Assembly: GCA_964187785.1 (NCBI GenBank)
Contig: OZ076409.1
Span: 15,874,001-15,938,000 of the forward strand
Direction of reading: 5' to 3'
DNA: 64,000 nt
DNA from: Amphiscolops sp. MND2022
Lineage: Eukaryota
A program made the translations under genes and the position numbers. Under the pieces are notes generated by a model that ran no database searches, was not told where the DNA came from, and saw nothing but the letters and a program-made list of their open reading frames with translations. Of this stretch, positions 1-42,695 are shown one piece after another (the stretch's first letter is position 1; every line of letters begins with the position of its first letter).

Positions 1-3000
1 GGAGACCCAGCCAGGCTGACTCCAGAGCTCGCAAGCTCGCTTCCATTTTGGGAAGCTGGCAATCTCCAGCTCCAAGCAATGTCCTTCCCACTCTGCGCGG
101 GCTTCGGGGCCTTGCACGGAATTGATCTCATCGTGCTGGACGATGGACATATCTCCTGACATCGTCATCTTGGCCTGCGGTCTCCAGACAGCTCTTCTAG
201 GGAACGGAGTCACGCGCCGTTGCAGGTTCCTTTGTCGAGTCTGAGCTGCTCCTTCAATCCAACTCGGAATCTGAGCCAATTCCATATACTGGACCTGCCG
301 ATTGAAGGCTTCAGGGGCGCGACCAACGGGTTTTGCTCTGGGCCATCCCAGTGGCTCCTTCCAGTAGTGATTTGGGAAGGTGATGCACTTGAAGGCGTAC
401 AGGGGATCTATAGGTGGACCAGCACTACTGCTGGTACGAATCACTTTACGTATAAACTCCTGCGTCCAAGGGAATCTAAAGGGGACTCCATTCAGGCTGA
501 GAGGCGCGGAGTACCAATTGACTGGGCCGTACTCTCGTGGCAAAGGGCACGCCTTTCGTGTGCGGGCGCGCAACAAACCCATCAAGTTCTCCTCCAGTTG
601 ATTCTCCGACTTCAAGGTGGTATACCCATGCGGCATCTCGCCACTCAATACAGCCTGTACGATGCGCGGATAGGTCAGTGGGGGGCGTCCTTGGAGATAG
701 GTGCAGAAGGAGACCATGTGCACCTGCACTGCTCTCGACAATGGTTTGGTGGGATACCGGCACACACCGACCGCACCGAAGATTGGGGCCAGGACGGAAG
801 CCATGACGGCCACGAAGTCCTCCACTTCGGCCAGAGTCAAATCGGCGATTTGCTGGGGCATAGGAAATCCCGCCGTTTCCGCAGGGAGTTGACGCTCGGA
901 ATTGTGCAGGGGTTGCGACTGATCCACGCCTACAAACAAGCCGGAGGCGAACACTAGGGTGGAATACAACCAATGTTGGAGGGATGCACGCATGCGTTCC
1001 AGCTGGGTGACATAATCTTGTTGGTCCTTGGAATTCAGGAGGTGACCCCATCGAGTTAGGCTGCGTAGCTGTCCCTGCGCGAGGATCAGGTAGCTGTAAA
1101 AGGTGACTAGATCACTGGATACTACCAGCTCGACTAACATAGCCAGAGGACCAGCCACAAACTTTGTCGGGCCCATGGTTAGCGCGAGCGCTAACATCTC
1201 CGACAGTGGTCTCGCCGATGGTTTCCAACAATTTGTCAGTCTGCACATTGGTGAGCAAGAACTCAGAGGCTATTACATCGATATTCCAGCCTAGTCCGAG
1301 ACTGGTGCAAAAGGCTTCCAAGGGACAGTTAAGCTCTTGAGCTACCTCGGCCAAGGTTCTGTCCACGAATCTGGACTGATACCATTCGGCATACGTTAAT
1401 CCGGCGGCATCTACTTCAGTCTTCAAGTTGGTCGCCTCCACAGCCACGATGTGCCTCAGGCCCACGGGCAACTTGACAGGCTCGATTCCCGCGGCAAACC
1501 GAATCTGAGGAATGGTCCTTTCGACCGTGCGTGCGGCAGGCCATGTTTCAATTTCCTTCACAAGCTCTGCCAGCTCTGTTCGTACGGGAATTTCTTTGTC
1601 TTTCCGCACCAGCCAGTTATATCGTCGAACAGCCTCTCGCTCACTCATGTTAGATTCTCGCGTGACGCGATTCCCGTCCAAGTCGAAGGCCATCCGCCCC
1701 ATGCACATTCCATGATCAAACAGTATGGCATCGTCGATAGTTAGTTGTGCATTTCCCGATCGCTCCACAGTGATTAGCACTCTTGATACAGCAGCAAAGA
1801 AGGCAGGGTATGACAATGCATCGGGGCGTAGGTCTCCGCGATCAACCCGAAGATTTGGCGCACATATGGCAAACTCGATCCAGCGCGCCTTGCACACCTC
1901 AGACAAGATATATACAAACTGCTGCAAGCTTCGTTGCCAATACATGAATCCCGGCGGGGATGTGAAGAGCGCGAGCGCTCCCAGACGACCCCGAAGGATC
2001 CCTGCTGCACGCTCCATTGCATCCGCAACCACGTTTACTAAGGTCGCCACATTCCCAGGTCTACGGGTATCTGCCATGAGGGCATCCAGGTTGTGTAGCA
2101 GTCCTTCACAGGCCATGTGGTCGATCAAGTTGGTGAAGACTACACGTCGCGGGGGTGGCTCTCTTAGAGACCCTCTCAGGTTTGGGTCGTACATGACCGC
2201 GACCATCTCTGCGACTTCGGCGAAGCGGGAGAGTGGCATTGTTAATACCAGCACATCAGGCAGAAGGTTATCGATAGGCAGATCGCTCTTGCACGTCGAA
2301 TCTACCGCCACACAATAGCGCGCACGCTGCAGAGCTGCTTTCAAGGGGGGTTCATTGACCTGATATTACGAGCGTAGCGGGCGTTCGCTTCCCAGGTTTC
2401 TCCTTCGCGCAATATGTACCTAGCGGGAAATTGCTCGGTGAGGTCGTGCTGCAGGCGAGCCATGTAGTTGTTGGGTGTGGCGGGCAGTTGCTCTCGAGCA
2501 CGCTGTTCCCAGGCTTGCTCACTCAGGTCCGCATCACGGGCACGTAGCGATCGAGTTATTTGTGCCGCAATGGTGATTCTGCTCACCTCTCTTTGATCGG
2601 CGTCCGACGGCGGTGCTCTTCTTCTAATCGCACATGTGTTTGGGTGCAAACACTCTGCTGCCATCCAGATGCGTTTACTATCGCTAGTTACCACGGAGCC
2701 GGATACATCATCTGACGGGGGAAGGAAGGCGGGAGGGCTGGTCTCCTCGACTGTCTCGGGCACCTCCAGGGACATGTTGGCAGAGCCTGTGCCCAAGGGC
2801 ACAGGACTCGTTTCAGGATTCGCATCCACACTGCCGTAGCGGTTGTTGGCCTCTTCCATAGACATTTGAGGCGCGCCTACGCCCAGGTGGCCGACGCGGT
2901 ATGGAGGCCTCACGACCACTACACTCTTCATTTGCGATTGCTGGGGTACATCTGCTCGCTTGTCCGGAGGGGGACGACTGGTCGGACTCTCGGTCACAGA

Positions 3001-3858
3001 ATTATTGCGCGTAGCGACGATGCTTTCCTCAGTAAGTCGCTTCCGTCCGGTTTCCTCACGGGGACATGTTATAGCGCTGGTGCTTGGTCCGGTCGTGGTG
3101 TCTGCTTCCATGGACACAGTTTCGGCTAGGGTGGTGGGTGGGGTGACACAGCCCGAGGATTGAGCTGCGGCTTGCAAATAGTGTGCCAATCCGGGAATCC
3201 TTTGTTCAACTGCACGGACGAAGTCAGAGGAGTTGGGGTAGTTGGCGACTGCTTGCAGGGCTACGATCACCGCTTGCTCGCTAGTGCTCCGTCCAGTAAG
3301 ATTCAGATTAGGCACTGATGGCAGTTGGGACCCCGAGGGCTCCCGACTTGAGGCTGATTGTTTGGCAGGGTTTTGCATTGTCGTTGCCTGGGTTCCATAT
3401 GGTGCCCCAAAAGCAAGTGAGCCAGCATACGGTGTCATCTGCACTGGATTCGGTGCCGAGATAGACGGCAGCGATGGGACATTGACGGGCATCATACGCA
3501 GTGATGCTTCTTGTTCGAATCTGGTGCCCTGACTGGGGCCATGCACTGCGATTGATCTTTCGTCTAAGAACTGGTGAGTCAGGTCGTACCCATCCCAGAC
3601 ATTATTGGTACACGTCAAGGTGCGACGATAGCCTGCCACCTCCGTAGTGATCGACAATGATGCGTTTGGCAGCGTTAGCATCGTTTCAAGCTGGGTCAGT
3701 AAGGCAGCTACCCCAGCAACGGCTACTGGTGAAAGACCATCCCGCAGCCTCTCTTCGACGTATTGGGCCTGATTGACCCTCTGCGCTCGCGCAGATTCCT
3801 GGGGCCTTGCACTACTAGGCCCTGTTGCAGGCGCTGAACTGTTTGGGCAATGGGCCAT
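1..3858 (-). pseudogene. Accessory ORF2 of the giant Gypsy (>1280 codons; low-complexity N-half, SGNH-like central domain, hydrophobic C-part), two 1-nt frameshifts
   Basis: ORFs 2341-3858 and 1112-2344 join across a C6 run (2345-2350). A second shift near 1200 leads to a frame I translated (EMLALALTMGPTKFVAGPLAML...) that stays open to base 1. Motifs VAVDS, RRVVFTNLID and DLRP resemble SGNH blocks I, III and V. Confidence 0.7.
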
Positions 3859-3870
3859 TAATGCATAGGT

Positions 3871-3890
3871 CTAAAAAGGACCACTGTTAG
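3871..3890 (-). promoter_or_regulatory. Putative branch point and 3' splice acceptor upstream of ORF2
   Basis: Minus strand reads CTAAC-AGTGGT-CCTTTTTAG|ACCTATGCATTA-ATG; the AG lies 12 nt before the ORF2 ATG at 3858. Confidence 0.45.
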
Positions 3891-4153
3891 GCTTACAGGG
3901 GCAAGTTCTTTCTGGAGCGAGCCGTGGGCTGGCTCGTCCCTCAATTACAGCGATGCAACATCGGCTCCGTAAGGGGGCCACTACAAACTTAAAATTTAAC
4001 TCTAACTAACTAACGAACTAGAACAAAACCTTTGAGTAAACAGCATGACAAATTAACATTTCGAGAGCATTTCAAGACTCTTCCATGGTTGTTACAAGGA
4101 TTATTACAAGGATTGAGGGCAAAGGGAAAATGGGGACAACTAAAATGATAAGG

Positions 4154-5360
4154 TTACTCCAGCCCTACATTTAATATTGATACATATACGCGGCTATGCA
4201 AAACCACGCGAATACCAGTTCCTTCGAACATGTTCGTTAGAGCATGGTACAAATTGACCAACGAGAAAGTCGGTCTCTCGGGGTCCAGAATGGGTAAGTG
4301 GACCCGTGTGGATCCTTTGTCTATCAGGCGCTGTATCAAGTGCGTCATGCAGCGCAAGTAGTCATCGGTCAGCAGCGGTGCGCGCTGGCTAGCACGGACT
4401 ATTAACAGGTGAATACTTTGATTAGGGTTGGGGTTCACATCAGGCGGGATAGTGAGAATCTCGCCCACTTTAGGTCGTAAGGCAAATACATCTTCTATGC
4501 CGCACTCCCGCAGCACATATCGCAAGGCGGCAGAGTTGGTCTTTAGGTCAGCAGGGCATGCTAACACTATGTCGCCCTCGGCCTGCAAAAAATCAGATTC
4601 ATCGTAAGAGACATGTTCGGCAGAATTCGGATACAGGGCTCCCGGGTAAACAATCTCTCGTCCGGGACCATTGTCGGAGGGCAGACACACGCGAGGCGTA
4701 CGCCCTTGGACTGCAGCCAGGTCTCGCCACACTGAGCGGGGCATCGCTCGATTGTCGCTGCCGGCCTTTACCCACGTATCTAAAGTTCCCAGAGCGGCTT
4801 TAGGGAACAGGGGGATCTCGAAAGTGTGAGTCCACTCATCTAACAGTCGAATTCTGGGATAGGTGGCGAAACACGTAATAATTAGTTCCAGCCACCATGC
4901 AAACTTCACCTTGCCTCGGTACCAGTCTATGATGTGAAAGCAAAGTATTAAGTCCACAGTGGTGAGGGTCCTCAGACTCTCTAGACAGGATAACAGATTC
5001 AACGGTTCCACCATTGCCTCCACTCGTGGAGCTGTTACCAGCAGCCACCAGTGAGGAGCCGGGCTGTATACCCCTCCTGGTTCCACCTGGACTCCATACT
5101 TATCGCATAACAAGTCGGCAGTGATGCATCGGGCCATTTGCACTGGTTCCCTTTCAAAATTGAATGGTCCAAACGCAATATTGTTGGGCACAGGGGGCAA
5201 CACCGTAGGCAGGGTAAACTCCAGGCCCTTTCCATCGCTAGTCCACTCCTTAAACCTAGGACAAGGGGCCTTCGCTACCCCAGGTAGTGACAACTTCTCC
5301 AGGATAGTGTCTACAGGGTGGTCTCCGGACCGCTCTACAGCTGAGTAGGTTTTCTCGGCC
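4154..5360 (-). CDS. C-terminal pol extension with two tandem TARG1/OARD1(DarG)-like macrodomains
   Basis: Domain 1 (~4838-5182): MARCITAD, LLVTAPR, NLLSCLESLR. Domain 2 (~4193-4615): VSYDESDFL, RPKVGEI, LLIVRA, GSTRVHLP, MFEGTGIRVVLH. Both parallel TARG1 LAHCISED / KSGEV / YLITKK / NLQKSLEAMK / GVTDLSMP / VFEATDIKITVY. The frame stays open upstream to ~5360, where a 1-nt shift joins it to the integrase ORF. Confidence 0.7.
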
Positions 5361-8153
5361 CTTCCGGAGGAACTCCCCGGGCTCCAATGGGAACCCTCCG
5401 GTTCTCATTCACAGCTAATAGGCAGACACAATCTCGCAGCCCGCAGGTTCCACATTTGTAGCGCGGCTGCCGTTTACTCCTTAATTGATACCTAAGAGCA
5501 GTTGCAGACGCCTCTGTTAGCGTCTCTGCAGTTCTAGGAGCTTCCGTTTCGGCCTGGATTGCAGTTTCGGTTTCGACATTTGTCGGTGTTTCTTTTTTCC
5601 TCGTCCTTGCTTTCGCTCGGATCAGCCGTTTCTTCTGTGCCTTGGGTGGTCTTCCCCTCCCCCTTTTGAAAGAAGGAGCGGTCCCCGCTCCTGGCGAAGT
5701 CTCGGGAACTTCAGGCAGATCGGGCTGAGCGTTGCTGACGCTGCTGGCAGACTTGAGAGGAATCGGAGGGGCGGTCGGCCATATGGGATAGTTACTAAGG
5801 AAATTGGTTAGCGAGGGGTTCGTTAACAAGGATGCCGAGGTTCCAGGCAACGATGTTTCTTTTTCGGAAGAGGATATCTGTGGAGACGGTGAGCGCACGC
5901 GCTCATGGTCAGAGAACAGTTGAGGTAGTACACGGGCGGGGGATATCGACTGATCCAACGCAGCCGGAGGAGCCGCAGGCTCCACTAGATCCTCGTCAAC
6001 TGGATTAGGAGGCATCGGCAACATAGCATCGGATAGTTCGTCATCTGTACCTGAGGTGGAATAGTCAAATTGCTGATAATGCGGGCGGGAGCCGCCTGCA
6101 CGAAGTTTCGTGCGTAGTCGAGTGTCCATCCAGTGACGTCGACGTGAGGGCAAAGATGCATCGGACGCCTCTGAAAGTAGTTGTTCAGGCTTATACGACG
6201 ATAAAGATCTATCGTCATCAACTACGTCGACGGAACGTTCAGGTTCGGGGTCCATAAGTACCACCACCTCACCACTGTCCGCGTGTGCAGTAGCAAGTTC
6301 AAGTGGGCCACTGTGGTGCGGTTTAAGACGCTCAAAATGAACCTTTTGACCTGTGTCTAGTACATAGACACGACCGTCCTGAAAGACTTGTACAACCTTG
6401 TGCGGGCCTCGCCAAGCACGCATCAATTTCGGGGAACCTTTTTGCGGCACGTAGCGGCAGAAAACCCAGACGAGCTCGCCCACTTGGTAAGCTCGCGCTT
6501 GTATAGCACGGTCGTACTTCAACTTTTGACGCAATTGGGCTTGGTGCGTATTACGCCGTACCAAGTCATGTATTTCTTGCTGGCGAGCCAACACATGATC
6601 GACATACGCGTCATGCGACTCGAATGAATTGGCTGCAAATTCGGGATACAAAAACGTGAGAGGAATGGCCTTCTCTACACCCCGGGTCAGCATGTAGGGT
6701 GAGAAGCCAGTGGTGGCGTGCCTCGTGGAGTTGTAAGCGCCCATGACCTCATCAAGACATTGGTCCCAGTCGCGCATACGGCGGGAGCAAAAAATTCGCA
6801 GTAGGGTTAATAATATCCGGTTTTGACGCTCCACCAAGCCTTGGGTTCTTGGATGGCCAGCCGTAGAAGTCACTTTGGTAACGTGGGCTGCTCTTAGGAA
6901 TTCATTGGATACCTCAGCAGTCAAATTTGGAGCATTGTCAGACTGCATTCGAGTAGGTGTGCCATGACGGGCGAACCACTTTTGCAGCAGCAACCGAGAG
7001 AGGTGGTCACAGCGTCGTAGTCGTGATGACTACAGGGAACTGCTTCCGCGAACTTGGAGAAATGGTCAATTATGACCAAGATGCCAGTGTTGTTACTGTC
7101 TGAGGGGCAGATCTTCAGGTGATCGTATTGGACTAATTCGTTGAAGTACCCACTCTGGATGTTCTTTAGGTGGAATCGGACGTCACCAGGCTTATCTCGA
7201 ACCTGTTGACAGGTGAGGCATTGGCCAACGTAACGGCCCACGCTGCGTCGAATACCAGGCCATGTGTGACGTTCTTGAATCCGAGCCACCACTTTGGAGA
7301 TGCCTTGATGTCCCATGGCGTCATGCGCACGGAATAAAATCTCATGCTGGTACAGTTGAGGCATGACGATCATGCACGGGCGTTCGTGCAGGGGACGTTG
7401 GTTGGGAGAGTATCGTACGCAAAGCACACCATTTTTGTTAATAAACAGGAGAGTTTTCTTCTGACGGTAGTAGTTGCGTGCGAACTCACGCACGTTCTCG
7501 GGAAACACGTCATGATCAATGGGTTCGTTTAGCACTAACTTTTTGAGTGCTAGCACATGAACATCACGGTTTTGGGCTAGGATCAAGTCTTTGATACCAT
7601 GCACGGTGTGAGCATGTTCGTGAAGTTCAGTGTCGATGTCTTTAAGAGCCATAATTGAGTCGCGTACACCCGAGGGAGTACCTTGCAACGCAACAGGATT
7701 CGCCCCGGCAACAGCATAGACGGTACGTGAAGGTACATTTACGGCATGCGTCGGCAATAGATAATCTTCGCGAGCTTCATCAGTGACATCAATCCAGTCC
7801 TCAGGGTAGTCTGGATAAGCATCCTCGTGCGGTTGCGGTGCAAGGGAAGGCGGAGGCGGCAAGGGTGCTGCGAATGCTTTCGCTTGTCTGTCCCTCCTGC
7901 TCGCTCGTTTGGTGCGGCGAAGCACGCGTAGCAATTGGTTGGGAGCCCTAGGCTCCAAGTTCTGCAGGTGCGCAGGTAGTTCGGGATGATTCGGGATGAC
8001 TCGACCCTGAAGGTCGAACCATGGGGCAACAGGTAGTTTATCAAATTCGTCAGCTGAAAGGAAATTCCAGCGTTCGCCCGCGGCTGGCTGCTGTGCAAGC
8101 TGTTTCTCTCGGCACCGGTACTCGTTAGTTCGTTTGCTCAAGCCATCGGCGTT
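5335..8153 (-). pseudogene. Integrase (HHCC, DDE core, GPY/F) with long C-terminal tail; frameshift near 6995
   Basis: HDAMGH...CLTC; YDHL, IIDHFSK, SDNAPN, GLVERQN; WRGPHKV, VHFERLK; an extra CT dinucleotide near 6995 splits ORFs 6921-8141 and 5335-6993. Confidence 0.95.
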
Positions 8154-10920
8154 TCAATGTTGAGTTCTTGGGCGATGTTCCACGCGAAAGTGATACTTCT
8201 CCAGGGTCATAATCCATCGGCCGATTAGCGCTTGATCCGTGGAGTACGTCTTCAACCAGGACAAGGCTTGGTTGTCCACCCGCAGGGTGAATTTCCGGGG
8301 ACATAAATAGCTGTGGTTTTTCACTATAAAATAGTAGGCGGCGAACATTTCGAGTTTGGGAGCTCCGTACTTAGCTTGTGTGGTAGTGAGCTTCTTGCTG
8401 CCGTAAACTATTGGCCTCAGGCGTCGTTCACCCGGAGGACCTTGCCACTGGTGCAGGATACCAGAAATGGCGACAGCGCTAGCGTCAGTGTCCAACACAA
8501 ACTCTCCCTCGGAATCAGGCTGCGCGAGCGCAGTCGCCTCGATCAGGGCTTTCTTGATTTCATTGAATGCGGTTTGTTGTTCAGGACCCCATGCGAAGGT
8601 GTCATTCAGTCCAGTGACGGCATGCAGGGGTGCAACCAGCTTAGCGTGCCAAGGGATGAATTCGCGATAGTAATTGGCGAATCCGAGGAAGCTCTGCATC
8701 TCCGTCTTGTTACGGGGAATTTCCCAATCGCGCAACTTGACGAAGGCTTTCGGGTCGGGCTTCACTCCTTCTGCGGAAACTACTCGTCCCAAGTACTTGA
8801 TCTCCGATTTCATGAAATCGCATTTGGCCACGCGCATTTTGAAACCGGCTTCACGGAGGCACTCAAAGACTTCACGTAGGCGTGCCATATGGTCCTCCAC
8901 AGTCTCTGTGGCAATCACGATATCATCAATGTAGGCCATGACCATGCTGCCCTCACGGTTGACAATATTCCGTAGCGCACGCGCTATTGATCGCTGGAAT
9001 GTGGCAGATGCATTGCACATACCAAATGGCATTCGCCGCCACTCAAAAAGCCCTAGTTCACAAGCAAAAGCGGTTTTGTGGCGATCCGCCTTTCGCACAG
9101 GAATTTGCCAAAAGGCCCAGGCAAGGTCTATGCTGGTATAAATCTTCGCCTTGCCCAGCCGTGCCAGGCTTTCATCAATACGGGGCAAGGGGTAGGCATC
9201 CTTAATGGTTACCTCGTTTAACGGGCGGAAGTCGCAGCAAAAGCGCAACTCCCCGTTTTTCTTTTTCACCATTACAATGCCGCTCGCCCAAGGGGACAGC
9301 GAGGGCTGTATCATTCCCAGAGCTAAGAGGTTCCGCACCTCCTGATTGGCACGTTCGGCCTTCTCAGGGGACATCCGGCGAGCACCTTCGCGATGTGGTA
9401 CAGCCCCTGGTTCCACCTCTACGGTATGCTTTGCGATAGTGCACCGACCGATGTCAGCCTTGTGCTTCATGAATAGCTCATCGAATTCATCGAGGAGATT
9501 TTTGAGAGACTCGCAGGCACTAGCGCCCCATAAATCCTTAACCGCCTGCAACTGAGATTCTGGCCCAGGAATCGGAGCCATTAGCTCTGGGTCTGTACGC
9601 TTGCGAATTTCGCGCTCCGATAGTCCTGCCTCGCTAGGGTCAGTTGAGGACAAAAACTCAAACTCTGAAGAAGAGGTTAACTCAGAAGCAGTGGACAGAT
9701 TCACTTCACTATAAATTTTATGAACAAAATTTGCACGACTGTCGTCGGCGTTAGTCTTTGTGCGGGTTGTCGTGGGAGGGTCCAGACACTGAGGTACTGC
9801 TTGGTATACTACCGTTACGGGTACTACGGTGCCCAGTTGTACACCACACCGCATGCGTTGAGGGTTGCTGGTGAGATTTATCAGGCTCACAAAGAGTGTC
9901 CCTGTCTCACTGACAGTGGCCACGCTGTCCTCTAAAAAGACGACATTATGCAACGTAGTGTCAGACAAAGAGGCATTGAGCGCTACGCTTTGAAAAATCA
10001 GCGGCTCTAGTGCATTGGTGACGAGCTTAGCTCTAGCCACCGCACGCTCGAAAGGTTGCAGAACCAAGTCACTATCCAAAACGACTGGGGTAGCTATCGA
10101 AGTGTCACCTACCTGTGCGTGAGCATGATGCCACACAGGCTTCACTGGTGCTCGCACCACAATCTTCATAGATGTTAGATCCACTAACACCTGGTAGGAG
10201 CGGAGAAAGTTCCGACCAAGTAGGAAGTCTTCCACACCCATTGCGTCATCTACCACCACAAAGTTCGTTTCAAGCTCATATCCTCCCAGCTGGAAATGGA
10301 TATGTTCTGCGAGGCCGTAGGTCTTTATCGTCTTCCCGTTGGCTGCGTACAGGTCAACTTGGTAGGGTTTAAGGACCGTTCCAGTTCGAGCTGACACTCT
10401 GTTAAAGGCGGAAAACGTCAGTATGGAGACGCCCGAGCCAGTGTCCACCAATCCTCGCAGCGGGATAGGTGCTGCATGAGGCACCACGAAGGAGACCACG
10501 AGCGACGCACGCTCATCTATACGCGCTTCACCAGTAGGTTCCTGATGATTGATGTTATAGCATTTGAGCTCCTGGGGACCCAGACAAATGCCAGGGGGAA
10601 ACACATCCACCACCACACAGGCTTCAAACTTCAAATCCACTCCATCCATTGAAGCACAGACTGGCACTGGGGAGTATGTCGTCAGAGTCGTAGACTCTCC
10701 CGGAGCGTACCATTCTTTCGGTCGAGGCAACTCGTTTCGTTTGTAGAGGACAGACAGTTCGACCCACAGCTACGCCAGGGTTAGCGTCGGTCTACGCGTT
10801 TGCTCAGCTGCCAGCAACAGGTGAATTGAAATCAGCGTCCGTCCTTGCGGGTCGAACGTCGTAGGCTCCAAGCAGGTCTGAACTTGCTTAGCACCACAAG
10901 TGAATGTCATCGGAGTGTGG
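8154..10920 (-). pseudogene. pol: Pol: protease-like repeat, aspartic protease, reverse transcriptase and RNase H
   Basis: LVDTGSG (Asp codon 10443-10445), LLGRNFL; RT PWASG, RFCCDFRPLN, YPLPRID, MPFG, YIDD (8922-8933); RNase H TDAS, DNQAL; in-frame stops TAG 10770 and TGA 8154 (H*NADGLS). Confidence 0.96.
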
Positions 10921-11195
10921 AACGCAGGCGGTTCCGCCGGATGCAGCATCAACACACGGTCATCTTCCAAAGGTACGGTGTGCGCGGCGATGCCAGCTGA
11001 TTCTACCTCAGCCCATCGGTTGTAGGCTAACTCGTCACTGGGCTTCGGCGCGTGGGAGTGCTCACCACATTGCACTTCCGCCTGATCAAAAAGTCCACAG
11101 CTCGTGCACTGATAGATCCCCGGATGACATTCAAGAATGCCATCAGTCGCGTCTTCCGTGGTGACATTTACGCCCTCTGGTTCGGAGGCAGTCAC

Positions 11196-13540
11196 TGGTT
11201 TTCGGGCTTGGTCGCGGTTGGGGCATTCGCGAGCAAAATGTCCGTTTTGCCCACAGTGAAAACAAGCACCTGCCGGCGCTCGGGCGGGAGCTAGGACAGC
11301 GGGAGCTGGGGCATTTGGGGGGGGGGCGCCGGAGGTGGCAAGACGCCCTGCGGCATGACCATCTTATTCGGCGGCAGTGGTACGAAGGGATGAGGTCTAG
11401 ACCTCATAGCTAGTCTGGGATCATAGGTTTGTTGAGGTTGGGTGGGTCTGGGACGATTTCGTTGCAGCTGACGCGTGGTGAATCGCAAGGACTCTACGGT
11501 AGGGGGTTCGGTAAGAAAAGTCTCCGAGGCGTATACTATGGCAAGTTCACGCCTCAATACTGGATCTCGCACACCTTCCATGAAGCGCTGCAAGATTTCA
11601 TAGCGCTTGGTAATGATACTTTCTTGCGGGAATCCTTGGCTCCTGAGACCCTCTAAAGCGTCTAAGTACTGCATCCAGTCCTCTTTTTCTTGTTGGACGC
11701 GGCTTTGGAAAGTCTGCCGCACCTGCATACGATTTCCTCCCGCGCCAAATCGGCTAGATAGCAATTCGAATACCTTCTCGGGGGTGTCACGTTCAGACTG
11801 AGCCTTGTTGATGATGTAGTTGCGAGCCTCACCCTCGAGATGACCAATAATGCTCCAGGCCCGATCTTCGGCCGAGACTTTGGTTTGGACTCTTTTCAAG
11901 TATCGCTGCATCACCAAGATCCAGCCATCAATAGACCCGTCCTTAGAGCCGCGATACACACTGGGTTTGGTTTGAGCCAGGTCACGTCCCGCAAGCAATG
12001 GTGCTAGTTCTTTGGACATCGCTTTGGAAATGGCGGCAGTGAATCTCAGCTGCTCGGGAGAGATGACCTCAGCCTCTCCTTCCTTGGGTGCCACTTCGTC
12101 GGTACCGTCGTCACTGCCATGTGTGGCTCGTACTGAGAGGTCCGCTATGTCTTCTTTCTAGCGAGTGCTACTCGCACAAGGAGCGCCCGAGGGCATTCCG
12201 TCCTCGGCTGTCCAGTCGGCGGTCAGATACAGGGAGTCCGTTCCAGAAGCCATGGTAGGGGCCGTCGCATACGCAGCTCCATCAGTCTGGGACCCTAGTG
12301 TGGCCTTGGTACAGGATAAATCAACTTCAGTAGAAGAATCTAGATAGATAGGTGACATTGGGTCCACACCTTGGTCTCGGGTGGTACTTCGAACTACGGA
12401 GGAGGTTATTTGACTCATCGAAGAGGAGTCGTGGGGCCCTCTCACCTGCACCCGTGCAGGTTTACGCTCCACATCAGCCATGATGAGTACGGGGTCCCTG
12501 ATTCGGGTTTCAGGCGCCGTCGACTTGGAAGTGCCAGGCTTCAATGCACTCGCCAGCTCGGGTTTCGTTGCCCGACCCAGGTGCGACGATTCCGGAATCT
12601 TAGTTGAATCCGCGACTGGTACACCTTCACCGGCACCAGATTGTCGTGGGAGGGACCTCTCGCGCCTCATGATGTTGATAGCGTTGAGCACAGTGTGCAT
12701 TTGGTTACTGAAATCATTGATCTGGGTTTCCACACGAAGTTCACGGGCCATTAAAAGGTCATTCATCTCACCCATTCTGTGGCCTAGTGCATCCACGCGA
12801 GCGCTCTGCGTATTCTGCGCGGTTCGCAGTTGATCACTGACCTGCAATCCTTCTCGCATCGTTGTCTGCAACGTTCTCAAATTTTCTGCGATGGCACGAT
12901 GTTGATCATTGCACCCAGCACGAGTGCTGGCCAGTTCAGCTAAGGCACGTTGGGTCTCAGCTTGGGCGTCCAATATTGCGGCTTTATACACCGAAGATCG
13001 TTGGGATGACGCCACTGAACCTGCCACGCTCCTCGTACGAGGCGCCTCAAACTGATGTTCACCTACATTCATCATGGGTGGTCGCACTCTCTTGTGTTTG
13101 CCATAGGCACAAACTCGAGTGCTACCTCGAGTGACTCCAGACCCCTGCGGTCTCGCATAACTCGTGTTCCCCGTGTAGGTAAGATCTTCGTCCACCATGA
13201 TCTGTAGGCGGGAGCTCGTCTTCTCTCCCAGGGGTGCGCGAGAGCACCCTTCCTCAGCTGCAGGTTCGTTGGTCATGTTTGAGTTGGGCCACTCCTCTTC
13301 TGCTTCATTGGTTCTTTCACGGCAGGTTTCATCGACCCATTGCTCGGTTCGACGAGAGCTTCCAGATGCAACGGAACCCTCAGAGGGAGGGACCATGGCG
13401 GCCAACTCCTCTTTGCGTTGTTGCTCGATAGTGACTTCGTCAGACATTTCGTCTGAAAAATGCGAACTGTCCATTGTGGATCCCATAGTCACCCATGACC
13501 GCGAACTCATGTCAAGCCTTTCCAGGCCTGGTAGGACCAT
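11196..13540 (-). pseudogene. gag: Gag (long N-terminal region with predicted coiled coil, capsid-like domain, CCHC zinc knuckle)
   Basis: ORFs 12158-13774 and 11291-12094 share a frame across one TAG; capsid-like HLEGEARNY...FQSRVQQEKE; after a shift in the G10 run at 11317-11326 comes CFHCGQNGHFAREC (~11222-11264). Confidence 0.88.
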
Positions 13541-14760
13541 TACGTACGATACCAATAGCAGAGCAAGTGTCAACAACTCGGGCGCCGCCTTTAATGAGAT
13601 CTCGAAGGACGCGGGATTTGTCGAGTCGCTGTTAGCTCTAGGCTCGTCTCGGTGTGGACTTAAGAAAATTACTGCTTCACAATGTCCCAAATTTCTCGAA
13701 ATGCGTTTTAAGGCTCGTAGGCTGCTCAAATTCGCACAGCGCTTTCCCACCAGCACACTGGGCCAGAAAATCAACCTGGTTTGGGGCCAAAAGTCTCCAG
13801 TCGTTTACAGGAAGAATTTCAAAGAATTTTTGGGTTTTCCGAAAATCGCGCAGCAACACTCAAGAGGCTCGTGTGTGCACTGGAAACGCCGTATCAAGCT
13901 CTAAATTGACCAGCGGATCTTAGGTACACGTAGGTTTGCGACAGTGAACACAGTTTTGAGCTGCGCCCCTTCTACACAATTTCACCTAGGTACAGACGTG
14001 CGGTACCACTATGTACCCAAATACGCTGTTTTTCACGTCTTTTTCAAGATTGCGGTACACTGGAAAAAGCTAGTAAGCTCAAATTTTCTGCAGCAACGCA
14101 GGAACTAGCACAGGTTACAATGGTGGGCTGCAGTATAACCCCACCCGCCAGCTAAGGTGCCCGGGTTACTCGGAAAAATTAAGAAAAAACTGCCTTTTTG
14201 CACACCTTTTTGGGTGCCACGTTTTTCCTATTTTCTCAACAAGTATCACACAGATCGGCACTAAACTTAGTAGTTTATGCCAGTGGGCACCTACAATGCC
14301 ACTGATATGGTCGAATTGAAGCGCAAGCGCTTATTTGAGGTTTCGACCCGGTCTGGACGTTACACACGAAAAAATACTGTTTTTGACTACTTTTTTCACA
14401 AATTGACCAAGAGGATCACCTCAGAAAGTGATACGGCGGGCAAAATGGGACCAACGTGTTGCCCCACTATCCGTAGCACTGGGATAAACCCTCAATTGGT
14501 TATGCCCGTTAGATATAAGGCACTGACAGTCCTGCAGTTTTGGATTTTTTTGGTCCTTTTACGCTTCTCTGAGGTCGAAACGTCAGAGAGCTTTTCTCGA
14601 CTTTGGTGAACGACACGCCCACCAAATTTTCGGCACTAACGTTAATTTTTGTGGTGGTTACGAAAATGCAACCACTCTTTGGCTAGGGTTCAGGAATCGA
14701 TGACCCGACCCTAACTCAGAGACAGTCCGATTTTGTGGAAAATTGATCAAATTCAGTGCG

Positions 14761-15032
14761 TTTTTCCACTTTTCTCAGCACTGAAAAGGAATTTTGCACG
14801 CGGTTTTCACCACAATGCGTTATTTTTACTATAAAAACAGAAAATGAGAGCACGAAAGCTCCTGGCTAACAAAAAGACAGAGTGCCCAGGGGGTTTTTAT
14901 TGTGTGCTCGGACACTCCTGAAACTAACTAAAATTCAAGGTTTTTCAACTTTTCTCGACGCTAAAAGAGAATTTTTGCACGCGGTTTTCACCACAATGCG
15001 CTACCTTTATTGCAAAAACAGAAAATAAGAGC
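14761..15032. repeat. ~90-bp direct repeat pair in the retrotransposon leader
   Basis: 14761-14851 and 14941-15032 share TTTTGCACGCGGTTTTCACCACAATGCG and flanking AAAAACAGAAAAT-AGAGC. Confidence 0.85.
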
Positions 15033-16211
15033 GTTCAGACTCGCTCTGTTCCACTAAGCTTCGCTCTCAAGACTTTCAGACAATGCACTTTCTATGCCTG
15101 AAAACGCCTCAAATTACAGGTTTTTTGCACCGTGTCAGCCCCAGGCTGCCTGAATCCGCTGCAAAAGTTGCAGTTAGTGTCCTGCGGGATTGCTACGCTT
15201 GAAAAAACACCGTACACTGCTTTTTCACACTTCTACACAAGTGTACGCCTGTGTTTTTGGGTGCCTTTTTGGTCAAAATTCCATTTTTTTTTGCAATTTT
15301 CTGGTGCTAAATCGGCACTTTTATCACAACCAAAGGCAAAACTGCTGCCTTCTGTGCCTCGCACCAGCTTTCTCGAGCCTTGCAGCTGCTTTTTGCAACA
15401 CTTTTCACAAAGTTTTCCTGGTTCCGCTGAGCACAAGTGCTCAAAACCACGAAAAACACCAAAAAAAGGCAAAATTAGGGTTTTCTCACGCAAGTGCTAT
15501 CTTTTTTGCAGAAAAGCACTTCGTAGGGTGTCGTTACATCTACAACAAAACATTACTGACCTGCACCAACGATTCCCCGTCGAAAAAGGTGCATTTTCAA
15601 AATTTTCACCGACCATGAGCCATTTGAGCGACGCGTCCGGTCACAGGGGGTGCATCTTCACCACGCTTTTTCTCCACATCCAGACCAGATAGAGACACGC
15701 GGTTTGGACCATTAGCATCGTCTGCAATTGCACTTGCTGTCCACCAAAAATCATACCTCTAGGACGTCTCCACGAGAAATGGGAGTAGAAAGTAGGCAAC
15801 ACACAATTTGACTTCCCCTTCGCCTCGCTGGTTCACGGTCAGCCATCTACCAGTTACCTTCTTGCATGGCATAAAATGGCTGAAAATAGCTTGCAAAACC
15901 TGTTAAACACCCGTAGCCACGTGCTACGGTCTTCTGCACCTGCAAAAAGATACCCGCTGATGGGCACACAACACATCACACAAAAATACCGATTTCCTTC
16001 CAAAACACCTAAAAATGCCATTTTCGCACCTGAAAATGTGATTTTTTCGGGTTTTCTCTGGTTCAACGCCTCTCCCAGTTCCAGTAGAATGTCGCACGAC
16101 TAAAAAAAGGTAAAACTCTGCTTCTCTCTCCTTTTCCAGAGTCGAAACGGGCTTGGCGCTGATCACCAGGCCAGATCTTTTAAAAACCGCTCGGGAAAGC
16201 TTCCCAAGACG

Positions 16212-16229
16212 ATCCCTCTGTGGTCGCCA
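16212..16229 (-). other. Primer-binding site, tRNA-Arg-like
   Basis: Minus strand TGGCGACCACAGAGGGA, near-complementary to the ...TCCCTTCGTGGTCGCCA 3' end of metazoan tRNA-Arg(TCG) as I recall it. Confidence 0.75.
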
Positions 16230-16244
16230 AAAAATGAGTTTCTA

Positions 16245-16957
16245 TGTAACGATAAGCGCTGGCGCTTGAACCGCAACGTAGAGTGGAGGAACTAGAACAG
16301 CGAATATAATCTGGGACTTAGATCTCCGCGGCCCTAGCTCATTTTCCCTCCGAAGGAGCCAGTCCCAAGGTGGGGGAACCGTCTTGTTGGAAACTCTCTG
16401 GCCTGGTCCTAGTCTGTAACTGCTAAAAGTAACGGGCATCTTGCATGTCTCAAGACCACTGCTCAATTAGCCTTTAAAAAGGGGGCTGAAAACAGGAGAA
16501 TGTTGAGCCATAGTATTGGAGAATCTGATAAAATCGACATCAAAATGGGTAACTATAGATGTTAAATGGGCAGCTCTCGAGCATATCAATCTACTACAAT
16601 AAAGAAAGCACAACAAGCATAATAATATCAGAAGTTTGAGTTATTTGACAGGAATCGACCATGGCTTCCCAGCGCTAGCGCTCGTCACCGCACAGGACAC
16701 CGCAGGATCTTCAGGCGAGCATCCGGAACACATCCGGAACTACCAATGTAGTGTTAATTCCGAAGATGGGCACATCACCGTGTTCTAGAGACTGATTTCT
16801 ACGTCTTTTTTGTCGTCTCCTTTCGCGGGGGGGGGCGATTTCTGCTTTTCTGATATGCTTTTCTGACAGGTCTTTCGTCTTGAGCATGTTTGAGTGCCAC
16901 GTCAGATTTGAACGAATTTTTGCTTCGAAAATTTTGACATGGGCAGTTGCCGTTACA
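16245..16957 (-). repeat. 5' LTR of the giant Gypsy (713 bp)
   Basis: Terminal inverted repeat TGTAACG...CGTTACA; adjacent PBS; homologous LTR at 27704-28415. Confidence 0.85.
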
Positions 16958-17871
16958 CTTTTTTGAACCTCAGCCTCCTCTTCAAAATTGGGATATAGCG
17001 CAATATTTCTGGATGTCCTCTTTTGTGAAATGCAAAAGCACGAAAAAAAAATGCTGGCTGAAGTAGAGACTCGAATTTGCGACTAGGTTGGTTAGTCCTA
17101 GTCCACTAAACAGATTAACTCTAATCCAAATGTAGTACATACAGGAAGAGATCTGTGGTCTGACGAAAAAATGGCGAAAAAACGAGCCATTGTGAAAGTA
17201 AGCTTCCATTTCAAATTCTTAAATTTCATTGACTGAGTAAACTCTCTAGCCTTTTTTTGAGATGCAGGACAATGTATAATCCTTTTCCAATACAATACGG
17301 TATGAATAGCTGTTAAAATCAAGAAGGGAAAATTTGCGTCTCGTGAGGAAATTTTGTGACATCATCTTTAGATCCTTTTTTCTGAAACAACATCAGAAAC
17401 TGTCTTCGAAAGTGACTGCTGGCCAGCACATAGGAGAAGAAGTTCCAGGAGTTGTTGCAGCATGACAAAACACCCTGGAAAATGAACATATAGAACACAT
17501 GATACAAATACACTGCGGTTATTTTTTGGTAAGGATTTACGTTTTAACTTTAGTTTAACGATACTGAATTGCCTGCAAAAAGTATACTTTTCGTCGACGC
17601 TTTTTGGAATACGAATTGCCCGATTCATACAGTCGCAAGCTTTTTGTCAGAGCAAAGAACTTACACTGAATATTCCATTTTTACAGACTTCAGGGGTAAA
17701 TTCTACAGCGGTACCCAAAGAAGCAAAAAACCTACTGTTAACTTTGATTTTTTCTCAGTTTTCCATACATCCCCTTAGGGTCCCCCTTCAAGTTGTTTGA
17801 CACAGTACGACTTTTTCGGGAACAAATGACTTGACACAGTGTAACGAGCAAAAGACGTTACGGGTAATTAG

Positions 17872-18690
17872 AACAAACGGGGAACGGCCCAAGTTAGCAC
17901 CCGCTCAAGGTTCAAAAATGTTAAGTTTTTTAAATATACAAAAGGACACTATTGTTAAAATTTCATTAAACTTTCAGTACCGAAACATCCCTGAAAGGAT
18001 GTGCATAAGACTCGAAAACTGGTTTTTCCCCAACTTGAGACAAACAAAATCCATCTTGCCCAGCCGAAAACCTCTCAAAAACAAAAAATGGAAGAAAAAC
18101 TGTTCGGAATTTTTCAGAAATGTCTCCTGTAAGTCGCACAGTGCCGAAAACCTTGAAAAATCCTCGATGCTCGCAAAATTTTTAGTTTCTAGGAAAAATT
18201 GAAAGAGGCTTAGATAAAGAACAAATTGGAAAAAACGTCGCATAGTACCGGAAAAACGCCGGGCTCAAAAAATTTGGATAGTATCGAAAAAATTATTGGT
18301 GAATTTGTTTTGAGGAAACTTAATATTAGAAGAAAAATTAGAACTTTGTGCCGTCTCATAGTGCCAAAAAATCCGAAACATCCTATTTTTAAACATCCAT
18401 TCGGTTGCAAAATTTCAAAAAATTAAGAGGGGACACTTTGGACACTTCAAAAAATCCCGAAAAAAGTCTCACAAAGCCGAAAAAGGAGGAAAGACCCATA
18501 GGGCCGAAAGAAGTGGAAATGTTAACCTTTCTGCTTTAGAATGACTTTGTATATAACGTTAGAGAGTTTGAATGCGTTCAAAGTCAAATACTGAGCACAT
18601 TTGGTAATAGTGTACAGTGCAGAAAAAGTGGACCATTCCGACTAACAAAAAAACTAGTCACTGTTATAGTCGGGCTTTTTTCCAAACTTC
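17872..18690 (-). mobile_element. HINE/DINE-1-like repeat copy (truncated) in a GPCR A intron
   Basis: Begins AACAAACGGGGAACGGCCCAAGTTAGCACC..., ends GTCACTGTTATAGTCGGGC, matching the other copies. Confidence 0.65.
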
Positions 18691-20408
18691 CAAATTTGAA
18701 TACTATCGAAACTTACAGCAAAAACATTCAGCAATTTGTTGAATTGATATTGGCGATGGGTGACAATTTTAACACCGGCTGATGTGATGAGAACACTGCC
18801 TATTCCCAAGTTCATGACCAAGAAACATACTGAGACAAGAACTAAAGAAATTGTAATCTCTCGCTCCTTGCGGCTCACTTTTCCTTCCATTCTTCTCAGC
18901 TTGTACACTATCAAAATATTCGATGTTAGGATGCTCAGAAACGGAGCCCCGATTAGCCCTACCAACACGATCCATGTCACGTAGGCATGTCTCTGTTTCT
19001 CAGTCAGAATATCATCTCCTATCATGGAACACTCATCTTCATGGATATCGTAGATTGCGAGAACAGGAGAACAGGTATGCACACGAAAGCACTGACGCAT
19101 TCCACGAGAATGGTTGTTCCTACTGCAATGCTGGATTTGCCGTACATTTTGTAGTTGACAGGTACCCAAAGAGCCAACACGCGATCAATTGTCAGAAATG
19201 CGAGTATGTAGTTAGCTGCAAAATACATATTGATTTCATAATGACACGGTACAGGCTTCATGGTGGATAATAGGTTTTGAAACTATACAGCAAGGCAAGG
19301 AGTATGTGGACAATCGAAAAACAAATTTGCGAAATTACGTTTCAGGTCGACATTTAGCTTCATGAAGAAAATATTAATACATTCAAGTGTTTGTTGACAG
19401 CATTAACTTATATGATTCAACCGTAAAAAGAGTTTATGGCTGTTGTGTACTGATAATGAAATCACCGTTTCCTAGTCGTTCCCTAGTTGTTTCTTAATTT
19501 AACGTTTTTCGTAGTAATTCGAGCCGAAAGAAGCAATGCATGCCACGTAGCCTAGAGGTTAGGTTGGGTGGTTTAGTAGTAGTAGTACGCGTGTTCATAT
19601 CCTGCGAGGACTAAGAAGATCACATTTTCCTAAATTGGAATTTTTCACTTAGGATCAAATTAAGGATTTTTTGTTTCTTGAAACACACAGAAAAAGGGTA
19701 AACAATTCAAGTGCGAAAATTGGAAATAGTTCGTTTCAACATAAAGATTTCATGTTTACTTTTTCACAAATAGACTGTTTCAATAATAAATACCGGAAAA
19801 CACGGAAAAACTTTGTATTCTCAAACATATTCTGACACGAACTAAAATTTTTCATTTATTTCCAAATGCTTGAGAGGATAGTCTCTACAGTTGCTTTGAC
19901 ACTTCGAGTAAAAATTGGCTCTGGTGATTGCAAACGTTTAATTTTTCTCTCTTCCTTGTATTTTTTAAACATTTTTTCAGGAAAGGAAACTTTTAGTTTC
20001 AGCCAAAAGCCAAAGTTTATGCCGGTTTCTCTGCGTGGTGACTGGAAGCAGATGTTCGTGGGTTTGCGCTGGACCAAAAAGAAGATCAAAGGGTCCACAC
20101 ATTGTGTTTTTGCACTGTGCAACTTTTTTTTCGCAAATTTGTCACATTGACAAATTTTTTGCCTATTTGATTTTTGTATGTTATTAGTAATCAAAAAGCA
20201 TCTTGCGGAAACGTAATGTCACTCTTTTGGATTTTTGGGTACTCTGTGACTTTTATCGTAGGGCTTTTCAACCCAAAAGGGTTTTTTTGATGTTCTCAAC
20301 TTAAGACATCCGTTTTTCGAGTCACAAAGTTACTTCTTATAACATCTGACACAAAAAAAATATTACAGTGCCTGTTTGTTTATTCAAAACTGGCTATTTT
20401 AATTTCAT

Positions 20409-21536
20409 AACGTTTTGTCTTTGAGCACTGTGGATAAATACGCCAAAGAAAAGCTTCGGCATTTGTATGGAACTTGCATAAAAAAGAGAGAAATTTAAAA
20501 ATGAAACCTATGTGTAACATTTTTGTCAGTTTCATACTGGGCACTTTTCTCAAGGAAATCAAGATGTTTCCAATTTTGCATAAAATATTATTTTTTCTTT
20601 TCCGGTATTATGATCATGGACGCAAAATAAGAACAAAAAATGACTATTTTGAAGCCAGGTCTCAACAAAGCACTTAAAGTTAGTGTTTTTTTCGCATATA
20701 ATAATTTTCAGAGACTGGATTGATCAGCCAGAAAGAAGACAGCTAAATTGGCAATTGAACTGGTTCAGTGACACCATCTTTTTCTGGATGCATTTGAGGG
20801 AAAAGTCTCAGGAAACAAAAGTACCAGACAGTTTGATTAAAATACCCTGTGCATCAACGAGCAACTTCAATCCAAACTTTTGAACCCGCTTTTCGTACAT
20901 AAAGTCAGCCGTGATAGTTTTCTAAACTTTCTATTACTGAAAACATTAAAACATGCTATAATGCATCAGGAGCACTGTACTTCTTATTTGCATCTAATAT
21001 AGATTCATTTTTTTTAACAAAAATTGTCGTTTTGTTTTTAAATTTTTTGTCCGCAGAAAACATCATATTCCAGGCTCAGTTTTTAAATTCAATCAACTGT
21101 TCAAAAAATGTGTTCGACATAAACATTTCCAACAACTGTAATGGATAGAAGTTGAATTTTAACAACTTCTCGATGACTTCTTGTTCTTTCCTTGATGTTG
21201 ACAATTCAACTTTGTCAAGGGTAAGGTTACGGGCCCCATGTACATATTGACTTACCTCCAAAAGAAGTCGCACTTGTGAAATAGAAATGTATTTTGCACG
21301 TGTAGCGGTTGAGAGTGATCAGTGGGAATTGGAAAAGAGCTGAGCCAGAAGCAATGAGACCATCCAAGAAGACAGACGCCGAGTCAGCCAAGGCTAGACA
21401 CTTGATGAACATAGTACCTGAAGTCCTATTCCCCAGGCGAGAAGCTGTGAGATACGCGAAGCAGTTGCCAGTTAGACCAATGATTGCTACCACCAGACTG
21501 AGACACCATCCAATGTAGATGCCGATCTCCAGATCT
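20409..21536. repeat. ~1.13-kb near-identical duplicate of 53389-54516 (GPCR exon plus intron)
   Basis: Direct comparison shows only scattered differences; the ORF track gives identical translations for 21076-21273/54056-54253 and 21309-21518/54289-54498. Confidence 0.95.
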
Positions 21537-22342
21537 AGGGTGAATACCTCAGCAAATTCGGTAACATTGCTGGAATCTGGACCAAAAATCAAACACTAAT
21601 TGCACGAAACTTTTCGATATAATCAATTGTGCAGCAGATATTAATTTTCAAATTTCACCACCGTTCCTTACTTATCAACTTTGCAATCGAGGAAACTCCA
21701 ACTTTTTAGATTTTTAAGGCAATTAGCTTGAGGTTCGTTTGGCTTGAGGTTCGTTGCATGACTACCCTGAAATGAGTTTTTGACATGTGTCCATGAGTCC
21801 ATGACATCCATACTTTCAATGCTTCCATGCATGGTATTGTTTTCTTCCATAAATGAACTCATACTATGAACATACCTGAACACAACCTATCAATAAAAGC
21901 TATGATAACGGTGTTTATATTGAAAACCGTCAATTCTTCGCGTGGGTACTCCAGTAACTTTAAGAGGGAACTTTAAAGCATGATTTTTTCAAATTGAAAA
22001 TTATGTTTCTTAAATTACCTTCGTGCAAACCTTTTTAAATTACCTTTTTCTCAACATGACGCTGACGATCGCTTGCAACTATCTCGGTTTTGAATGAAAT
22101 TCTGAGTTTCGGTTGCTTGAAGGTACTTTTGTTTCAAATAAGAAACCATTCAAATGTGTGCTATCTTGAGATTCCGCAAAACGAAGTTAAAATTTCAATA
22201 GATCAAAATTTCACACTATAATGGAAACCTGTATGCAAATAAAGTTGTTAAACTGGAGGAAATATTGATATTTTTCATAACGTTTGAAAGAATTGAAAAG
22301 TATTTTCAATGTTTCTAGTTTGTGAAAAAAAAATCTTTTCTT

Positions 22343-22800
22343 ATACGAACCAGCAGGTAAAACAACCCCCTTCATTTGAATTAGTTTTGACTGAATGAAT
22401 GAGCTTCAATTGACGATGCTTTTTTCAACCATGAAAAAATAGAGGACAATTTGTTCACCAATTAGTTGAAAATTCGACTTGAGCTTTATATTTGTCAATT
22501 GAGTTTTCTTTACCAAGAAATGACGTTTTTTGTTAGATAATTTGCCCCACTTGGCGCTGTCAACTACTCATGTTCTGCGAAAAGATGCCTTCCAAAACAA
22601 AGAGAGGGGGGGTTCCTTATGTTCCTCTTGTAAGAGAATGAAAATTGACAAAAATCTTCATTTTATTCAATTGTTTCGTATTCAAACATTCAATACGACG
22701 AACTGAATTTATCACTGAAGAGTCTTGTTGTTTTTGTTATACAAAATACGTCCCTTTCTCGGGCGGTGTCCCAAATCAGAACGTGCGTTAGAACGATGAG
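22343..22800. repeat. Diverged non-coding block homologous to ~37131-37550, upstream of GPCR A and B
   Basis: Shared ATACGAACCAGCAG, TTCATTTGAATTAGTT, AAAATTGACA-AAATCTTC, TTCGTATTCAAACA, CGGGCGGTGTCC. Confidence 0.75.
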
Positions 22801-35900: not shown

Positions 35901-36325
35901 ATCACAACTGTACTTATTTTGCAACCATTTTCCATCCCGCACTGGGAGATTGAATCATTTGGTCCATGATTCTACTAACCACCGAATGATGTAACAGCTG
36001 TTAAATAAAAGTGTCCTTTGCAAGTGTACTGATTTATATTGACCAGTGGGAATTGAAATAGAGCTGAGCCAGAAGCAAAGAAACCATCCGAAAAGACAGA
36101 TGCCGAGTCCGCCACGGCTAAACACTTGATGAACATTGTGCCTGATGTCCTAATTCCCAAGCGAGAAGCTGTGAGATACGCGAAACAGTTGCCAGTGAGA
36201 CCGATGATTGCTACCACCAGACTGAGACACCACCCAATGTAGATGCCGATCTCCAGATCCAATGAAAATCCGAACTCAGAGTTAGTTTCATTGCCAGAAT
36301 TTCGACCGATAAAATAACAAAACAT
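32920..36325 (-). CDS. Rhodopsin-class (peptide-receptor-like) GPCR paralog B, ~331 aa; exons 36325-35980, 34267-33777, 33078-32920
   Basis: Exon lengths 346+491+159 splice in frame at GT/AG; NET sequon, GLTGN, LAVAD, LTIDRV, NNSLNFFSY, FRRQF; start codon uncertain. Confidence 0.88.
33330..33563 (+). mobile_element. Diverged HINE-like 3' fragment in a GPCR B intron
   Basis: Ends TTTGAGCCT...CAACTTGAAACGCCCTCGTCTTGTT, like the 26239 end. Confidence 0.5.
35097..35260. repeat. Array of palindromic TCTTGCAAG(A) units; probable end of a TIR element
   Basis: Starts CCCTGGTTG, with several TCTTGCAAGA/TCTTGCAAGG units; resembles the TCTTGGCAAGA subterminal arrays of 55089-57658. Confidence 0.6.
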
Positions 36326-42489: not shown

Positions 42490-42695
42490 TGTAGAGGTGA
42501 AAATTATATAGTCTAGACAGACTTAATTGAACATTCAAGTACCTGCCTATGAACTATAAAGTACATCCCCACCATTTAGTTATTGCCTTCGATGCTATAC
42601 GGATAGATACTGATACTCTAGTACTGCATACTATTGAGAACGTTATCTTCTTAATTTGAACTTCTTAATTCTATCTTTTCCACGAGTCTACAACA
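42490..42695 (+). repeat. 5' LTR (206 bp)
   Basis: TGTAGAGG...CTACAACA, repeated at 48212. Confidence 0.97.

Follow-up and report, generated by a model that had tools for sequence, protein, structure and literature searches.

Three-base target duplications and a macrodomain-ended polyprotein in a large Gypsy-type retrotransposon lineage of Amphiscolops

The first 17 kb of a 64,000-nucleotide stretch of Amphiscolops sp. MND2022 (contig OZ076409.1, positions 15,874,001 to 15,938,000, here called the window) are filled by a minus-strand long terminal repeat (LTR) element, over which GC content is raised. We regard this element as probably a recent, broken copy of a large Gypsy-type lineage that leaves target-site duplications (TSDs) of 3 bp, whose polyprotein ends in two probably non-catalytic macrodomains, predicted to be binding modules of the integrase, and whose second open reading frame (ORF2) is likely an accessory gene not needed in cis to move. 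The most unusual trait of the lineage is its integration geometry, which the initial annotation of the window had overlooked.

Results

Integration signature and primer site

Searches of the host genome with diverged homologs added six families to that of the window copy (A to G in all), and 16 copies of these and of a close sister subfamily were read. A 3-bp duplication was present in 38 of the 41 insertions for which both ends were available, covering six of the seven families; none had 4 or 5 bp, and three had no duplication. The count left out L057/L072 (flanks the same as those of L042/L066), L047/L048 (a tandem array with a shared LTR), L033/L061, L054 and D1 (for which the second end could not be located), as well as a truncated copy on C7. 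We considered the possibility that a 4- or 5-bp duplication was hidden by shifted LTR ends and rejected it, because the bases flanking the triplet are not fixed. The target is weakly palindromic about its middle base, with A at -4 and T at +4 (45/66, p 5e-9), and reads A-N-N-N-W-N-N-N-T with the duplication inside. A palindrome centred on a middle base fits an odd-numbered stagger.

The primer-binding site (PBS) lies 15-16 nt beyond the CA of the LTR in all seven families, after a spacer that ends in a T run. In one of two clades (clade I, see below) its 18 nt match host tRNA-Arg(TCG), and in the other it matches host tRNA-Lys(TTT). In the standard scheme of reverse transcription, the spacer between LTR and PBS would end up on the cDNA end. 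Since integrated copies end at CA, we infer that a cDNA extension of 15-16 nt would have to be removed, rather than the usual two bases.

The copies L042/L066 and L057/L072 (G000:C1, about 167 kb apart) have identical flanks, and therefore represent a segmental duplication or an assembly duplicate. The family-A array L047-L048 is head-to-tail, with one LTR flanked by both polypurine tract (PPT) and PBS; five family-D matches form another such array at G000:C1:34.05-34.11 Mb, with a spacing of about 14 kb. Copies of families C and E (L102-L104, L129-L130) lie within or beside duplicated or repeated host sequence. An internally deleted 3.4-kb copy (L058-L059, G000:C13:14.07 Mb) retains two LTRs and a 3-bp duplication. 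The primer-site patterns have 275 and 652 matches genome-wide, and large tandem arrays of tRNA-like units matching them occur at G000:C9:57.54-57.58 Mb and G000:C7:5.22-5.26 Mb (periods of about 173 and 193 bp). Units scanned in the C9 array were tRNA-Arg; for the C7 array the evidence is the pattern itself, which at other loci yielded tRNA-Lys(TTT). The window also holds an unrelated 5.9-kb LTR element on the plus strand (42490-48420). Its LTRs, 209 bp long, share 99% identity, it is flanked by a 5-bp duplication, and its primer site adjoins the LTR; in reverse transcriptase (RT) and integrase (IN) it is only about 25% identical to the lineage.

Structure of the window copy

On the minus strand, the copy begins at 16957 with the TGTAAC of its 5' LTR and extends to G000:C1:15872110, 1,890 bases beyond the left edge of the window, in neighbouring genome sequence. 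The initial annotation had described an element of more than 17 kb without its 3' end; extension leftwards reached the 3' LTR and gave a total of 18,848 bp, of which 17.4 kb are internal. The LTRs are 97.9% identical and have TGT...ACA ends. The features are as follows, all on the minus strand except where the position alone is given.

16958..16960, minus: 3-bp target-site duplication AAG, repeated past the 3' LTR, outside the window
16245..16957, minus: 5' LTR, 713 bp, TGTAAC...GTTACA
16230..16244, minus: 15-nt spacer from LTR end to PBS
16212..16229, minus: PBS, 18 nt, complementary to host tRNA-Arg(TCG) plus CCA
13541..16211, minus: 5' leader, about 2.7 kb, with a 100-bp direct repeat
4154..13540, minus: Gag-Pol-macro polyprotein gene, broken here, open in sister copies
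11476..11968, minus: capsid-like domain, PNMA-like (Pfam match below cut-off, E 2e-4)
11217..11267, minus: zinc knuckle CX2CX4HX4C (Pfam)
10532..10955, minus: retropepsin-like repeat, likely degenerate, lacking the D-T/S-G motif
10142..10529, minus: aspartic protease (PR), DTG intact
9815..10139, minus: beta-rich domain, at the position where other LTR elements place a dUTPase-like domain (PMC6431247)
8126..9578, minus: RT and RNase H (RH); top PDB match Ty3 RT, E 1e-70
6315..7592, minus: integrase, with HHCC, core and GPF/Y-type motif
5629..5667, minus: AT-hook-like motif in a low-complexity tail (Pfam below cut-off, E 0.22)
5422..5454, minus: CxxC-x4-CxC cluster, conserved among homologs (read directly from the sequence)
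4759..5224, minus: putative macrodomain 1, a diverged tandem duplicate
4157..4618, minus: macrodomain 2, with a TARG1/DarG fold in which other residues stand in place of both glycine-rich loops
3871..3895, minus: branch-point-like and pyrimidine-AG acceptor-like sequence, 13 nt upstream of the ORF2 ATG
1..3858, minus: ORF2, about 1,420 aa, running about 410 bases past the left end of the window, broken here
1750..2323, minus: ORF2 alpha/beta domain whose motifs follow an SGNH-like order (D-S retained, a conserved N-x-x-D-H, R for the catalytic H)
940..1460, minus: ORF2 all-helical domain, confidently predicted, no known match
G000:C1:15872110-15872820: 3' LTR, 711 bp, left of the window

Gag-pol (13540-4154) is interrupted by three in-frame stops as well as by three frame changes, ORF2 by two frame changes. 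The proposal of a single gag-pol frame of about 3100 codons held, since the sister subfamily has one open frame of 3,193 codons in 29 of 99 listed rows; the second frame, put at more than 1280 codons, continues past the window and measures 1,427-1,533 codons in intact copies. The 5' leader contains no sense-strand ORF of at least 180 codons wholly within it. Of six other copies that were read from end to end, five were colinear with the window copy at about 99% identity, and the sixth was truncated, with an internal duplication. A macrodomain-region probe gave 1,571 candidates in the host genome, of which the 40 scored were all 98-100% identical; an LTR probe gave 2,350, which are candidates and not a copy number.

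A 5'-truncated copy (L016-L018, G000:C7:26.40-26.41 Mb) carries a 3.46-kb internal tandem duplication that takes in the macrodomain region together with the beginning of ORF2. Window positions ~27629-27901 match the LTR end and primer site of the element at 80-89% and are probably a remnant of a related family of greater age.

Polyprotein domains

Pfam searches of the polyprotein recovered the CCHC knuckle, protease, RT, RNase H and integrase, which upholds the core of the domain order first proposed; macrodomain 2 was added by fold and the Cys cluster by reading. The capsid and AT-hook matches are below cut-off, and a dUTPase was not confirmed: the beta-rich domain has none among its PDB or Pfam rows, its fold not having been modelled. 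The macro region, ORF2, the protease-like repeat and the beta domain all lacked a Pfam family at cut-off. Ahead of the capsid-like domain comes an N-terminal extension that is variable and about 500 aa long.

The repeat upstream of the protease is conserved (dN/dS 0.03-0.04 in two family pairs) and has D-P-x-G in clade I and D-C-T in clade II at the catalytic position. Its named Atlas clusters (0.90-0.91) were aspartyl protease families in all listed rows, with a recognition value of 2152 (<2300). The hhalign comparison was not significant (E 0.14) and a PDB search gave no match. The putative retropepsin-like identity has moderate support, from the Atlas match (0.91 to retropepsins).

The macro fold of macrodomain 2 was confirmed by structure comparison, and that of macrodomain 1 is supported indirectly, by its profile similarity to macrodomain 2 (E 4e-5, against 0.04-0.41 for nine other module pairs). 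In the alignment, macrodomain 2 keeps neither the glycine-rich ADP-ribose loops nor the catalytic Lys and Asp of TARG1-type macrodomains. Both domains are likely to be non-catalytic, i.e. inactive versions of ADP-ribose-eraser folds.

ORF2

A splice acceptor presumably precedes ORF2, judging from the acceptor-like sequence upstream of its ATG. ORF2 was compared in an 85-row alignment. The Ser of the alpha/beta domain was present in 15 of 19 rows, and the His position was Arg in 24 of 29, with His not among its five commonest residues. The strand-helix order of the model fits an SGNH fold, and we call the domain SGNH-like by motif order only. Searching PDB with a profile of the ORF2 alignment returned two rows, both at chance level, and Atlas gave only rows below 0.9 for the domain.

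Several repeated SGNH (PF13472) families occur in the host genome (L143-L167), some with intact G-D-S and D-x-x-H and some without the Asp of block I. An ORF2 homolog, P0245, is on an 816-bp contig deposited under a bacterial metagenome-assembled genome label, likely through host contamination.

Families, clades and loss of ORF2

The polyprotein is a single frame of 2,997-3,296 codons with the macro region at its end in all copies read, in the order Gag-PR-RT-RH-IN-macro-macro in all seven families. LTRs measure 711-773 bp and internal parts 13-18 kb across the lineage. Identity in the macro region falls to 36-55% between families, with the modules still colinear and in one frame, and between-family dN/dS of the accessory modules is 0.03-0.15, showing purifying selection. 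The view that the modules are integral to the element is thereby sustained.

Four families (A, C, E and G; 18.8-19.2 kb) carry ORF2, and the other three (B, D and F; 14.8-15.6 kb) lack it without remnant. Trees of four regions all separated clade I (A, C, D) from clade II (B, E, F, G), with support of 100/100, and branching inside the clades varied by region. As ORF2 is homologous across both deep clades, its absence from three families means that an ancestral gene was lost, not that ORF2 is a nested insertion, the interpretation that the initial annotation had attached to copies lacking it; the simplest reading is that ORF2 was lost at least twice. The LTRs of ORF2-less B and F copies are 99.6-100% identical, and these families therefore moved recently without it.

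The distant homolog P0118 has no host-genome match above 49%, which indicates that the lineage is present in at least one other source. Distant homologs that were looked up had no names beyond two "hypothetical protein" labels, a homolog search starting from the distant P0286 found nothing, and metagenome contigs contained no confirmed locus of the lineage.

Other features of the window

Three diverged copies of a host segment (17362-22715, 32966-37472 and 49205-54529), about 15 kb apart, are likely a tandem gene cluster; an exon in one (ORF 18654-19184) reads like part of a seven-transmembrane receptor. Short tandem arrays occur at 55828-57384, 35132-35293 and 57525-57636, their units being 26, 29 and 11 bp long. 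Those with 26-bp units make up inverted arms about 1.35 kb apart, resembling a miniature inverted-repeat element.

Discussion

Placement of the lineage

Direct LTRs with TG...CA ends, a PBS and a PPT, the order PR-RT-RH-IN and a CX2CX4HX4C knuckle all agree with Ty3/Gypsy. The integrase carries the GPF/Y motif as a variant, WRGPH, which does not differ among the seven families and whose likeness to the motif in PMC12440569 was judged by eye. The next non-Ty3 RT after the Ty3 match scored 9e-45. The TSD departs from the typical, non-defining 4-6 bp. In PMC12440569 (2025), Troyka is the sole LTR group credited with 3-bp duplications, other LTR elements having 4-6 bp, and it also shares the single Gag-Pol frame, the PR-RT-RH-IN order and an animal host (as Kuafuorterviruses, PMC11673190). 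The present lineage might thus be a divergent Troyka branch that retained the 3-bp stagger, acquired TG...CA ends and grew large. We consider this very improbable, and rejected Troyka membership, because Troyka is described (PMC12440569) with CG...CG termini, a CX2CX8-10HX4C knuckle, no GPF/Y motif, LTRs of 100-400 bp and an internal part of at most 7.7 kb, about half the size seen here; the macrodomains and ORF2 also set the present lineage apart.

Proposed mechanism and alternatives

We propose that the element moves by ordinary LTR retrotransposition from one polyprotein, and that its integrase would cut the target with a 3-bp stagger, the 15-16-nt cDNA extension being trimmed at or before integration. 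The AT-hook, Cys cluster and macrodomains would stay on the integrase, at the position of the chromoviral chromodomain, and this tail is, by analogy, most likely a binding module that would tether the integrase to chromatin or nucleic acid with no erasing of ADP-ribose. ORF2 is most likely expressed from spliced RNA as a non-enzymatic helper that may bind RNA, lipid or protein, and its product might be supplied in trans or be dispensable. A more detailed version appears possible to us but rather doubtful, namely that an undescribed Gypsy lineage, independently of Troyka, altered its integrase geometry at both joints (3-bp stagger, 15-16-nt trimming) and steers this integrase by non-catalytic macrodomain readers of a new class, a pseudo-protease lobe regulating a single-chain protease and a trans-acting pseudo-esterase helper that the families share.

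Several points weigh against the favoured account. All functional roles in it are inferred, from sequence and models. Among the three insertions without duplication is the one copy of family D whose ends could be paired, and the target bias, weak and of the ordinary palindromic kind, is no demonstration of tethering. Gypsy placement relies on diagnostic features and the Ty3 PDB match, and the disagreement of region trees within clades points to recombination between families. In the dN/dS comparison, dS is near saturation in several windows. Macrodomain 1 owes its identity to likeness with macrodomain 2. The ORF2 acceptor is known from sequence alone, the hhalign comparison of the ORF2 domain with the host's SGNH proteins (E 0.074) fell short of significance, and the block-I region of the model has pLDDT <50; Foldseek with the 821-aa model gave no match at E<=0.001, where a missing SGNH match counts as no evidence.

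Rather than tethers and helpers, the macrodomains and ORF2 could serve counter-defence, as decoys or by antagonizing ADP-ribosylation or RNA silencing in the host, along the lines of the decoy role that the initial annotation suggested. The TARG1/DarG fold does reverse ADP-ribosylation of protein, DNA and RNA (PMC7139919), and ORF2 is conserved yet dispensable in cis, as expected of a trans-acting suppressor. A decoy would need canonical ADP-ribose binding, against which the lost glycine loops argue, and purifying selection is strong, with no sign of an arms race at the whole-domain level; the fusion of the macrodomains behind the integrase also speaks against this role, which we hold to be unlikely, though worth keeping in mind. 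For ORF2 alone, substitution for env in cell-to-cell spread is an improbable reading. Its env position, the acceptor-like site upstream and its repeated loss would fit, as env is lost in retroviruses turning intracellular. One hydrophobic 19-mer (mean hydropathy 1.7-2.3) is conserved in all four families with ORF2. Membrane roles have been proposed for GDSL ORFs (PMC5408684), but in each ORF2 none of the four stretches of highest hydropathy is a signal-like N-terminal segment at the first Met (judged without a signal-peptide predictor), and no glycoprotein matched it in Pfam or PDB. The lack of ORF2 in three families might suggest that the additional modules are nested insertions or cargo carried passively, a reading that is scarcely credible and was rejected: copies are colinear and in one frame across families this diverged, dN/dS is far below 1, and no internal repeats or duplications bound the modules.

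Relation to known systems

Burro/GYPSM1 of planarians is likewise a very large, high-copy Gypsy-like element with a huge multi-domain polyprotein and a dUTPase-like domain between PR and RT, the position of the beta-rich domain here; it exceeds 30 kb and has MATH, BIR, BCL2, ankyrin and env-like domains that are missing here, and the word "macro" is absent from the review describing it (PMC6431247). The lineage is distinct and large, as had been claimed, but not "giant" by the 20-kb threshold of that review, which the window copy, with 17.4 kb of internal sequence, does not reach. Vesta of bdelloid rotifers resembles the present lineage in an ORF 3' of pol, of SGNH/GDSL type in Vesta, that is gained and lost by family, and has a dUTPase domain in pol; the catalytic residues of the Vesta ORF are intact, unlike the Arg for His in the present protein of about 1,430 aa, which is SGNH-like by motif (PMC5408684). 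Compared with human TARG1/OARD1 (PDB 4J5R) and DarG, the present macrodomain is 13% identical with its glycine loops replaced, and the pair is arranged in tandem behind an integrase. Epsilon-like fish endogenous retroviruses carry a macrodomain as an additional ORF, in contrast to a degenerate tandem that ends Pol in an env-less element (PMC4977317). Chromoviruses share a reader-type module at the integrase C-terminus; theirs is a chromodomain with shown targeting, whereas the role of the macrodomains is predicted (PMC12440569, bioRxiv 10.1101/2021.11.30.470311).

Each cargo type thus has a precedent (PMC6431247, PMC5408684, PMC4977317). Our literature search, which outside the papers cited covered titles and the openings of abstracts and did not extend to Repbase, Dfam or GyDB, found no account of this architecture or of a TG...CA Gypsy element with a 3-bp TSD, although supplements could hold such families. 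The suggestion that several enzyme folds are degenerate holds in that neither the macrodomain nor the SGNH-like domain has the canonical features of catalysis; the dUTPase and SGNH labels lack statistical confirmation. The cargo is less unique than the initial annotation held, and the integration geometry more so.

Significance

TSD length is treated as a superfamily marker (PMC12440569), a rule broken by an element that combines TG...CA ends and Gypsy features with a 3-bp TSD. The lineage is a natural variant for asking how an integrase sets the stagger and trims ends. LTR finders that require a TSD of at least 4 bp, as is their usual default, would misplace or miss these families, although the LTR probe by itself gave 2,350 candidates. 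Since one genome holds young families with ORF2 and others without it, comparing them offers a test of what an accessory gene does.

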